Of a stretch of DNA of 64,000 bases, positions 52,768 to 54,956 are shown piece by piece; positions within the stretch are counted from its first letter, which is position 1; each line of letters opens with the position of its first letter. The stretch is from Escherichia phage EF1-1. The stretch is taken from sequence record PQ571289; one strand, given 5' to 3'. Under the pieces are notes generated by a model, which searched no databases, had not been told where the DNA came from, and saw only the letters and a program-made list of their open reading frames with translations. The translations under genes were made by a program, and so were the position numbers.

Positions 52768-53370
52768 TTATGGACATTCATACCATTCTTTTTTACCACC
52801 GAAGGCCATCACCACATCACAAATATCCAGACCAGCTTTACCTACACCATATGCTTTCAGCTTCCATTCCCCATCTTCACGAACCAAGGAAGCCACGTGG
52901 CAGATTGTGTTGCCAGCTACTTCAGGAGCCAGGAAGTCAAAATCCAGAATTTCCACATTGCGCTCGGAGTCAAAGATTTTAAGCATACCTTCAGAAGCAT
53001 GACCAAAACGTTTCAGACCTGTATCATCATCAATGGTCAGGACAAAGGCAATCTCTTGTGCATCAGGAGAGATTTTAGCCAGAGTAATATCAATCTTCTC
53101 CATGCTGCCAGTTCCATCACGAACATCGTCACCAGCGAAGGTAGAACGTTCAGGATCAAACTTGTTAGCATAGCAAACCAGATGACGTGCAGACAGCATT
53201 TCAGGATTGCCAGCGGCATTGTGACGACAAACCAGTGCACTTACATCCAGATCCAATTTAGAATCAGATTTCCAAGAGAATTCCAGGCGCAGTTCTTTCA
53301 GAGCCGGAGCAACTTTCTTCAGGGAAATTTTTTCGCTAGAACCTTTTTTCAGGGAAATTTTATCAGTCAT
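52768..53370 (-). CDS. terD: TerD-family stress protein
   Basis: N-terminal 'KISLKKG..EKISLKK', 'LDLDVSALV', 'DPERSTFAGDDVRDGTGSMEKIDI', 'EIAFVLTIDD'; 200 aa; host-like codon usage. Confidence 0.7.
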   Translation of the reverse strand: MTDKISLKKGSSEKISLKKVAPALKELRLEFSWKSDSKLDLDVSALVCRHNAAGNPEMLSARHLVCYANKFDPERSTFAGDDVRDGTGSMEKIDITLAKISPDAQEIAFVLTIDDDTGLKRFGHASEGMLKIFDSERNVEILDFDFLAPEVAGNTICHVASLVREDGEWKLKAYGVGKAGLDICDVVMAFGGKKEWYECP

Positions 53371-53385
53371 CTTTTGTCTCCTCTA

Positions 53386-53655
53386 TTATTTAAGTGTAAT
53401 ACCAGTTACAGTCAATTCTACTTCCAAAAGCTTAGATGTGTTTTGGATTGATACTAATTGTGCATGATGGTTTAGTTCTACAGCAGAACAATCATTTTCC
53501 CCATCATCTACTTTTAAATAAACAATGATTTCACTAAGGTCTAAACCATTTTCGTCAAATGCATTTTCATAGACGAAAGTATCTCCTACATCCAAATCTT
53601 TAATGGTAAGGCATCGTTTATTTACTTTTTGCTCATCAATTTCGAAGTTTAACAC
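53386..53655 (-). CDS. Small protein, paralog family A (intact copy)
   Basis: 89 aa; N- and C-terminal similarity to the frameshifted copy at 54677..54956. Confidence 0.35.
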   Translation of the reverse strand: MLNFEIDEQKVNKRCLTIKDLDVGDTFVYENAFDENGLDLSEIIVYLKVDDGENDCSAVELNHHAQLVSIQNTSKLLEVELTVTGITLK

Positions 53656-53884
53656 TTCTTCCTCCTAATGTTATCTCCGGTTTGTATATACGAAGAATTA
53701 TAGCATTTTCATTTTCTTTGTCAACCCATTCTTCATAATCGGGCCATACATGAATCTCTACTCTACTTACAATATCTTCCATTCGCACAGTCCCAATGAA
53801 ATACTCTTTGAGACTGCGTATAATGAAAGCTTCTCTCTCGCGCCAATAATTTTCTATGACTTGAGAGGCAAGCTCGTCGATCAT
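53636..53884 (-). CDS. Hypothetical small protein
   Basis: 82 aa ORF overlapping its neighbours. Confidence 0.25.
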   Translation of the reverse strand: MIDELASQVIENYWREREAFIIRSLKEYFIGTVRMEDIVSRVEIHVWPDYEEWVDKENENAIILRIYKPEITLGGRSVKLRN

Positions 53885-54675
53885 TTTTTAGCACCTACTT
53901 TAACAACCCACTCTCCGAACTCTTCAGATAAGAGTTTGTCATAAAGCTCTGAATCTGTCAAGTCTAAATCTTTAATGCCAATAAAACCAACATTATCATA
54001 AGCATTTGCCAGTTCTTTCAGGAAGCCAAACTTCTCATTACCAACGCCAACCATGAACCAATAAATAGGTTTATTCTTATTCTCTTCGATAAGACGACGA
54101 ACAGCACTAGGATCACCATTCTCACCATCCGTCTGGAAGAATACAACACCAGGGGTAACGTCAGCACCTGGTTCAGATACAGCTACAACTTTTTCACGCT
54201 CTACAGACACTGTTTCAGTTTTACCAAGCAGACGATTAAAGAAGCCTTTCTTTGGAGCCTCCTCTTGTACCACTTGTTTAGTGGTAATATATTTAGTAAC
54301 AGTGCCAAAATACTCATCGTAGATATCCGCCATTACAGGGGCGTAATTTGTTCCACCTCCGATACGAACATTACGCATACATTTACCAACATAGTCATCG
54401 TAAACATCTGCTGTTGCTGGAGTAAGCTCTTGGGAACTCGTATTGAAGGCCCACATATCAATTTGTTGATTATCGTCGAACAGCATACCAAAAGGAAGCA
54501 GTTTACCTACAAAATCACTCACTACCCCACTAGAATATAGACCATGCATACTACCAGAAATATCTAGAGCACATGCTACACGAAGAACAATCTTACCTTC
54601 ATTCAGGTTCTTATTCTTTTTCAGAGAGAAAGCAAGGTTTTCTTGACGTTTTTTCAGGCTGATTTTCTCGGACAT
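53881..54675 (-). CDS. von Willebrand factor A domain protein (TerY-like) with TerD-like N-terminal leader
   Basis: MIDAS motif 'LDISGSM'; N-terminus 'SEKISLKK...FSLKK' mimics the TerD N-terminus. Confidence 0.55.
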   Translation of the reverse strand: MSEKISLKKRQENLAFSLKKNKNLNEGKIVLRVACALDISGSMHGLYSSGVVSDFVGKLLPFGMLFDDNQQIDMWAFNTSSQELTPATADVYDDYVGKCMRNVRIGGGTNYAPVMADIYDEYFGTVTKYITTKQVVQEEAPKKGFFNRLLGKTETVSVEREKVVAVSEPGADVTPGVVFFQTDGENGDPSAVRRLIEENKNKPIYWFMVGVGNEKFGFLKELANAYDNVGFIGIKDLDLTDSELYDKLLSEEFGEWVVKVGAKK

Positions 54676-54676
54676 A

Positions 54677-54956
54677 TTATTTCTCCTTCTTAAGTGTAAT
54701 ATTGGTAACTTCTAAATCTACTTCCACCATATTTGTATCTGGTGGGATGCAATGAGTATAGCCTCGTTGTGCTAGTGATCCATTAATACAAATCGCACTG
54801 TTTGTGGAATTTTTAATGAACACCAAGTTACGGTAGGTATCCAACCCTGCGTCTTCATAGGCATCATAATACATGAATGTGGCCCCCTACGTCAAGATCT
54901 TCGAAAGCAATAGGTAAATCCTGACACTTTTCTTCTTGAATATTGAATCTAAACAC
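54677..54956 (-). pseudogene. Frameshifted paralog of 53386..53655 (frameshift in a G5/C5 run)
   Basis: GTG-started N-terminal piece (54956..54864) and C-terminal ORF (54874..54677) are in different frames; removing one C from the CCCCC run at 54883-54887 restores a ~90 aa paralog. Confidence 0.45.

Follow-up and report, generated by a model that had tools for sequence, protein, structure and literature searches.

Escherichia phage EF1-1 (sequence record PQ571289) carries a small cluster of Ter-like genes in which a gene of about 90 codons is split across two reading frames. The window, meaning the whole stretch of 64,000 nucleotides (nt) that was analyzed, comes from an E. coli myophage of the phAPEC8 type (Phapecoctavirus, Stephanstirmvirinae), and the region of the cluster shares 99% identity with such phages. 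For ease of reference, the split gene, which lies before the vWA gene, was designated smallA, and its intact paralog, which lies before the TerD gene, was designated smallB. All genes of the cluster are on the minus strand, and their order in the direction of transcription is TelA, three small open reading frames (ORFs), a gene for a 187-amino-acid (187-aa) protein, smallA, the vWA-TerF-like gene, a gene for an 82-aa protein, smallB, TerD, and the endolysin gene (Table 1). smallA begins with GTG behind a GAGGAGG Shine-Dalgarno sequence, its start overlaps the end of the 187-aa gene, and it ends 1 nt upstream of the vWA gene; smallB ends 16 nt upstream of TerD.

The two pieces of smallA are adjacent, with an 11-nt overlap. 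Alignment of the DNA with phAPEC8 gp062, 536P1, outra (Justusliebigvirus), and phiWec188 placed one additional G in the window, at a run of G in codons 24 and 25, and in the comparison with phAPEC8 and 536P1, the two closest sequences in the alignment, this extra G was the sole gap. In phAPEC8 the gene is annotated as one 279-nt coding sequence (CDS), gp062. Removal of one base from smallA gave a 92-aa ORF (VFRFNIQEEKCQDLPIAFEDLDVGATFMYYDAYEDAGLD...) that differs from phAPEC8 gp062 at 2 residues, in agreement with the original prediction, which had held that the two pieces align to the intact copy once a single C is taken out of the CCCCC on the plus strand. The restored protein matched PHROG 11278 along its length (E = 7.4e-50; residues 2 to 92 on profile positions 2 to 92), as did smallB (E = 2.6e-45; residues 1 to 89 on positions 1 to 89), which differs from its phAPEC8 counterpart, gp065, by 1 residue. 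A member of this family would be expected to have one uninterrupted frame of ∼89 to 93 codons; smallB has such a frame, and smallA stops after codon 30. The restored smallA and smallB proteins are 34% identical over 89 aa without a gap. Thus, the further claim that paralogous small genes precede TerD and vWA was also borne out, and alignment of the copies at the protein level, part of a check that had been suggested, gave a highly significant match between the paralogs (E = 1e-15).

TABLE 1 Features of the split gene and the surrounding Ter-like module in the window
Feature	Positions	Strand	Description
TelA-like protein, 370 aa	56072-57184	minus	Upstream member of the same Ter-like module; Pfam and PHROG matches
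187-aa protein, function unknown	54949-55512	minus	PHROG 14928; phAPEC8 gp061 ortholog; 3' end overlaps smallA start
smallA, frameshifted phAPEC8 gp062 ortholog	54677-54956	minus	PHROG 11278; 280 nt here versus 279 nt in relatives
smallA N-terminal fragment	54864-54956	minus	30 codons (VFRFNIQEEKCQDLPIAFEDLDVGGHIHVL), then premature TGA; GTG at 54956, stop at 54864-54866
GGGGG on coding strand (CCCCC on plus)	54883-54887	minus	Site of the one-base insertion; GGGG in relatives
smallA C-terminal fragment ORF, 65 aa	54677-54874	minus	Internal ATG at 54874 (Met28 of the intact protein)
vWA-TerF-like protein, 264 aa	53881-54675	minus	PF10138; DISGS motif; N-terminal KISLKK...FSLKK hairpin-like motif
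82-aa protein, function unknown	53636-53884	minus	PHROG 22387; between vWA and smallB
Sigma-70 consensus promoter	53697-53724	minus	TTGACA-16 nt-TATAAT with TG upstream, 12/12; inside the 82-aa gene, ∼40 nt upstream of smallB start
smallB, 89 aa	53386-53655	minus	PHROG 11278; GTG start; AGGAGG Shine-Dalgarno before start
TerD-domain protein, 200 aa	52768-53370	minus	PF02342

The extra G is private to this genome; about 70 related sequences were checked, and none of them has it. Related phages with the same two separate ORFs, the outcome that would have spoken against the original prediction, were not found. In GenBank, each of the 60 Phapecoctavirus records listed, which stand for about 48 distinct genomes once RefSeq/GenBank duplicates are set aside, aligns 319-to-319 with the intact phAPEC8 gene, with no net insertion or deletion (indel), and a run of five G (G5) was absent from 52 of the 52 phage records that carry the 60-mer searched for. 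Ten long metagenomic or isolate contigs that were picked solely for an identical vWA protein all carry four G (G4) and have the intact length; gene calling gave a 92-aa small gene on nine of these and one that starts at the internal ATG on the tenth.

Because the insertion is private, a conserved two-ORF arrangement and programmed frameshifting are ruled out. It is very improbable that the locus holds two genuine small genes, one for a peptide of 30 or 52 aa and one for the 65-aa protein. Gene callers did report the 65-aa ORF on several contigs, including some with an intact long frame, but both pieces are collinear with a single 92-position family profile and with the intact orthologs, the split was found only here, and the 30-aa product has no record in the assembly collection. 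Expression of both pieces as one protein, through a programmed +1 ribosomal frameshift or transcriptional slippage of the sort known from recoded phage genes, has a next-to-negligible chance. The pieces are adjacent, and a +1 shift at GGG-GGC would bring the full protein back; however, the two-frame arrangement occurs in no relative, since all of them use one frame for the smallA protein, no sign of a conserved stimulatory element was seen, and an Rfam scan of positions 52000 to 57500 returned zero family matches.

The 1-nt indels were counted over the whole window in comparison with three relatives (iGC_PHA_EC001, phAPEC8, and vB_Ec-G1). Only two 1-nt indels in 64 kb were private to the window. 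Both were changes in homopolymer length, and one of them was the smallA insertion. The other, at window positions 61157 to 61162, is an intergenic change from T5 to T4 in the spacer between a Shine-Dalgarno sequence and an ATG at 61158. A generally error-prone assembly was considered and rejected, since with just two private indels in 64 kb the assembly is not riddled with homopolymer errors. Each of the three relatives has a comparable number of 1-nt indels of its own.

The ATG at 61158 opens a 157-aa ORF (60685 to 61158) that is, by position, the ortholog of the annotated phosphatase of the relatives. In iGC_PHA_EC001, a private 1-nt indel relative to the window (window position 36694; locus 36281 to 38952 on L005) coincides with a tail protein gene that is annotated as two CDSs, compared with one in phAPEC8, and this indel apparently splits the gene.

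The smallA orthologs have ratios of nonsynonymous to synonymous substitution rates (dN/dS) of 0.15 to 0.34. The gene is thus functional in the lineage, with the family under purifying selection, and the lesion is either very young or an artifact. Since the broken copy shows no further decay and its intact orthologs have such low dN/dS values, the extra G is either a homopolymer miscall that was left uncorrected or a slippage mutation of very recent date. Of the three explanations offered in the original prediction, homopolymer error and recent pseudogenization thus both fit a private lesion, whereas the third, phase variation, is disfavored by the shortness of the tract and the near fixation of G4.

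If the consensus miscalled the homopolymer by adding a fifth G, then the phage truly has G4 and an intact 92-aa gene. This possibility is a substantial one, somewhat short of an even chance. In its favor, G4 was found in every one of the ∼70 related sequences checked, there is no other damage in the broken smallA copy, and both 1-nt indels private to the window are homopolymer length changes. In addition, similar private 1-nt indels occur in the deposited relatives, as though mutations or errors left uncorrected formed a background in the group. However, two private 1-nt indels per 64 kb are unlike an error-rich long-read or flow-chemistry assembly, a change in run length from 4 to 5 is short for a consensus-level miscall, and comparable frameshift alleles recur across independent assemblies.

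Three of these alleles came to light when the 65-aa C-terminal product was looked up in the assembly collection, a form of retrieval that favors broken copies. No record of the window's own 30-aa fragment was found in this collection. In assemblies from other samples, smallA has A7 in place of A6 at codons 8 to 10 (contig L012), A5 at the same place (L015), or G6 at the G-run of the window (L014). The lesions lie at about positions 2950 to 3000 of these three contigs, and each is the sole frame-breaking indel in ∼6 kb. In phAPEC8 the A tract is A6, whereas the window has an interrupted tract there (AAAAGTG). Protein searches revealed two further cases: a deletion that fuses the N terminus of the 187-aa protein (gp061) to the C terminus of smallA (L030, positions 782 to 949) and a frameshift in smallB from G4 to G5 (L031, positions 2501 to 2665). 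Thus, lesions in the PHROG 11278 family recur and are tolerated, and they are rare when set beside unbiased samples. Because the disruptions are recurrent and tolerated, the PHROG 11278 proteins may well be dispensable for propagation, as these alleles suggest.

Between the two explanations that fit a private lesion, we slightly prefer a real, very recent loss-of-function slippage mutation in a dispensable accessory gene, for which the chances are about even; we infer both that the mutation is real and that the gene is dispensable. Replication slippage would have added one G to the G4 run in this one genome. Translation from the GTG would then halt after 30 codons, leaving a fresh pseudogene. 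Initiation at the internal ATG might still yield the 65-aa C-terminal fragment, and the G-run, which lies 8 nt upstream of that codon, could act as a weak Shine-Dalgarno sequence. The vWA gene has its own GGAG Shine-Dalgarno sequence, located within the 3' end of smallA. Because the vWA gene would retain this ribosome-binding site, the loss of translational coupling would be expected to lower vWA expression rather than abolish it.

The recovery of length variants at exactly two tracts in other samples (G6, A7, and A5), together with the G4-to-G5 event in the paralog, raises the question of whether the G-run and the A6 run serve as contingency tracts that switch smallA on and off in phage populations by slipped-strand mispairing. 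Contingency tracts are usually 7 nt or more. The tracts in smallA are just 4 to 6 nt, no long tract (at least 7 units) is present, and tract length is not commonly variable among close relatives, with G4 nearly fixed in the GenBank records and in the unbiased contigs. The G6, A5, and A7 alleles arose solely from the retrieval that was enriched for broken copies. The G-run also falls within the spacer of a promoter-like element, TTGACG-N17/18-TATTAT, but this site scores only 10/12, and its −35 hexamer is not conserved. With tracts this short and G4 fixed elsewhere, phase variation seems unlikely, with only a small chance of being correct. A related idea is that slippage hot spots, formed by short runs of G4 and A6 within the 5' third of smallA and by G4 in smallB, give rise to low-frequency ON/OFF subpopulations for the putative SH3-like partner proteins of vWA and TerD; we regard this as a long shot, marginally fainter again. 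If it were true, the phage would have a bet-hedging switch for a Ter-like superinfection exclusion or host takeover module, and the G5 of the window would be an OFF variant fixed in one stock.

As an observation in its own right, the promoter-like element lies at positions 54866 to 54895 on the minus strand and has an 18-nt spacer in the window, compared with 17 nt in relatives with G4; the −35 hexamer of relatives is TTGGCA or TTGATG. The promoter scan found 25 sites, compared with 15.6 expected by chance, and the occurrence of this element around the G-run is probably coincidental.

smallA and smallB belong to a family with a narrow distribution. When 5.8 billion proteins were searched with a word index, 15 clusters of the small-protein family were found, and an exhaustive hidden Markov model search against 1.84 billion representatives yielded just 20 hits, most of them ∼87 to 93 aa long, with a few long multistretch hits besides. 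In a tblastn search of the phage collection, matches to the small proteins were confined to Stephanstirmvirinae-type phages, and scans of IMG/VR returned one diverged vWA locus and one weak small-protein match. The diverged IMG/VR relative (L017) had no PHROG 11278-like ORF at the corresponding position. Each Phapecoctavirus examined has two copies, one that ends a single base before the vWA gene and another just upstream of TerD. Justusliebigvirus phages have the vWA-linked copy only; the vWA gene is directly followed by TerD, and the 82-aa gene and smallB are absent. The small genes are thus not constant companions of the module. smallA and smallB are old paralogs of a lineage-restricted family of ∼90-aa proteins that are probably all-beta and may be SH3-like. 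The predicted structure of smallB is a small, all-beta fold that may be an SH3-like barrel. Considering their position and predicted fold, we infer that the small proteins may serve the vWA and TerD proteins that they precede as optional adaptors or partner subunits.

The original prediction also described a near-identical N-terminal leader in the TerD and vWA proteins and took the region to be a duplicated cassette. The leader is real. The N termini are MTDKISLKKGSSEKISLKK in TerD and MSEKISLKKRQENLAFSLKK in vWA, and the motif is kept in diverged orthologs of both. However, a pattern of the form (I/V)(S/D)LxK(R/K)...SLxK heads essentially all of the stand-alone vWA-TerF-like proteins that were found (homologs P0030 to P0086), phage and bacterial alike, as in Neobacillus vireti (MTVIDLTKKAKIVLEKK), and the leader also heads TerD in phages without a small gene upstream of TerD (outra and L017). 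Because it is present without an upstream small gene and in bacterial stand-alone vWA-TerF-like proteins, the leader is a family-level N-terminal element rather than a by-product of cassette duplication. The cassette idea is half right: the small genes are old paralogs, but the shared leader is general to stand-alone vWA-TerF-like proteins and TerD domains and is not a duplication product.

A repeat search found that the junctions, each comprising the 3' end of the small gene, the Shine-Dalgarno sequence, and the 5' end of the downstream gene, share ∼76% DNA identity in two ∼40-nt blocks spaced ∼1,300 nt apart. A recent segmental duplication of a unit made up of the small gene plus the leader was considered and rejected, and the similarity of the junctions was read as conserved coding and Shine-Dalgarno sequence. 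The leader element lies outside the Pfam PF10138 model. It looks like the opening two strands of a TerD domain and may be either an interaction motif or what is left of a TerF architecture. A Pfam test of the vWA leader as TerD-like used a 34-aa query that was too short to be informative; the leader of TerD itself gave an E value of 0.14.

Three proteins of the module are confirmed by domain matches. The TerD protein matched PF02342 with 97.7 bits (cutoff, 25.3), with residues 5 to 179 on profile positions 3 to 177 of 187. The vWA protein matched PF10138 (vWA-TerF-like) with 130.1 bits (cutoff, 29.4) and has a MIDAS-type DxSxS motif, DISGS, at residues 38 to 42. TelA matched PF05816 with 115.7 bits (cutoff, 30) and PHROG 5890, "tellurite resistance," with an E value of 1.6e-139. 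In the TerF architecture, TerD is fused to vWA; the vWA protein of the window has PF10138 alone, preceded by the hairpin-like motif of ∼20 aa, and fused TerD-vWA forms of 424 to 459 aa were found only as distant matches (P0088 to P0091). In the module interval (52768 to 57184), none of the ORFs examined was noted to be a TerC, TerB, PRTase, or HAD gene.

Both hexamers of the consensus promoter ahead of smallB are kept at each Phapecoctavirus locus that was checked, even that of the diverged phiWec188, in which the spacer is changed, and they are absent from Justusliebigvirus. This conservation suggests that smallB and TerD could form a separate unit transcribed by host RNA polymerase.

The upstream part of the module varies among relatives. 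At window positions ∼55881 to 55900, the 3' end of a 64-aa ORF (55881 to 56075, minus strand) that is orthologous to phAPEC8 gp058 has a (GAG)n codon repeat, encoding the C terminus, that is 3 or 6 nt longer or shorter from one relative to another; glutamates are gained or lost in these in-frame changes. A 67-aa gene occupies positions 55512 to 55715, as in several relatives; phAPEC8 and vB_Ec-G1 carry a 132-aa gene (gp060) there, and the alignment breaks at 55680 to 55708. This exchange has the look of a mosaic replacement within the module. The ortholog of the 187-aa gp061 is missing from phiWec186.

Two further differences from relatives were seen at the DNA polymerase gene of the window. 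A 196-aa ORF at 40955 to 41545 (minus strand) is annotated as an HNH endonuclease in iGC_PHA_EC001 and is absent from phAPEC8 and vB_Ec-G1, in which ∼600 nt are missing. It had no Pfam match at an E value of <1e-3 and is probably a mobile homing endonuclease beside the polymerase gene. Within the polymerase ORF itself (41572 to 44904, minus strand), ∼730 nt at positions 42425 to 43156, corresponding to about residues 583 to 826 of the 1,110-aa family A polymerase, have no counterpart in phAPEC8, and the polymerase CDS is 2,598 nt in phAPEC8 versus 3,333 nt in the window. The difference could reflect a deletion in phAPEC8 or else an insertion, such as an additional domain or an intein. At an E value of <1e-3, Pfam gave no match to an intein family.

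The finding is an ordinary one, a private frameshift allele of a known gene family. Dozens of deposited genomes already have annotations, as hypothetical proteins, for all genes of the module. For annotation, the two ORFs within the smallA interval should be treated as one frameshifted gp062 ortholog, or be corrected, rather than listed as two hypothetical proteins. The fixed position of the PHROG 11278 proteins directly upstream of vWA-TerF-like and TerD makes them candidate partner subunits of a phage Ter-like module. In the literature search, no paper was found that links phAPEC8 with TerD; one mentions tellurite merely alongside Phapecoctavirus.

The clustering of TerD, vWA-TerF-like, and TelA in the window resembles that of bacterial and plasmid Ter systems, which are associated with tellurite resistance and phage inhibition. 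It differs from them in that the vWA protein stands alone and is not fused to TerD as in TerF. Abbreviated Ter operons (TerD, TerF, and TelA) occur in phages, and a role in excluding superinfecting phages has been proposed for them (Iyer et al. 2021, PMC7824862). The two lineage-specific, putatively SH3-like small proteins of the window are not described in the retrieved passages of that paper.

The closest comparison for smallA is with phAPEC8 gp062 (YP_007348572.1) and its Phapecoctavirus and Justusliebigvirus orthologs, which likewise lie upstream of a vWA-TerF-like gene with a 1-nt spacer and begin with a GTG that overlaps the upstream gene. The window copy differs in its one extra G and in being split into pieces of 30 and 65 codons, whereas the listed relatives are intact. 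phAPEC8 gp065 (YP_007348569.1), the counterpart of smallB upstream of TerD, has the same layout of a small gene followed by a Ter module gene. The smallB case differs from that of smallA in that the gene is intact, has its own consensus sigma-70 promoter, and is present in Phapecoctavirus only and not in Justusliebigvirus. With phase-variable contingency loci, smallA shares a homopolymer in the 5' part of the coding sequence and rare length variants in other samples, but its tract, at 4 to 5 nt, is too short, and one length is almost fixed among relatives. The split smallA is most like other homopolymer frameshift pseudogenes or artifacts, such as the tail gene of iGC_PHA_EC001, in which one genome alone carries a one-base length change at a short homopolymer, and from these it does not differ materially.

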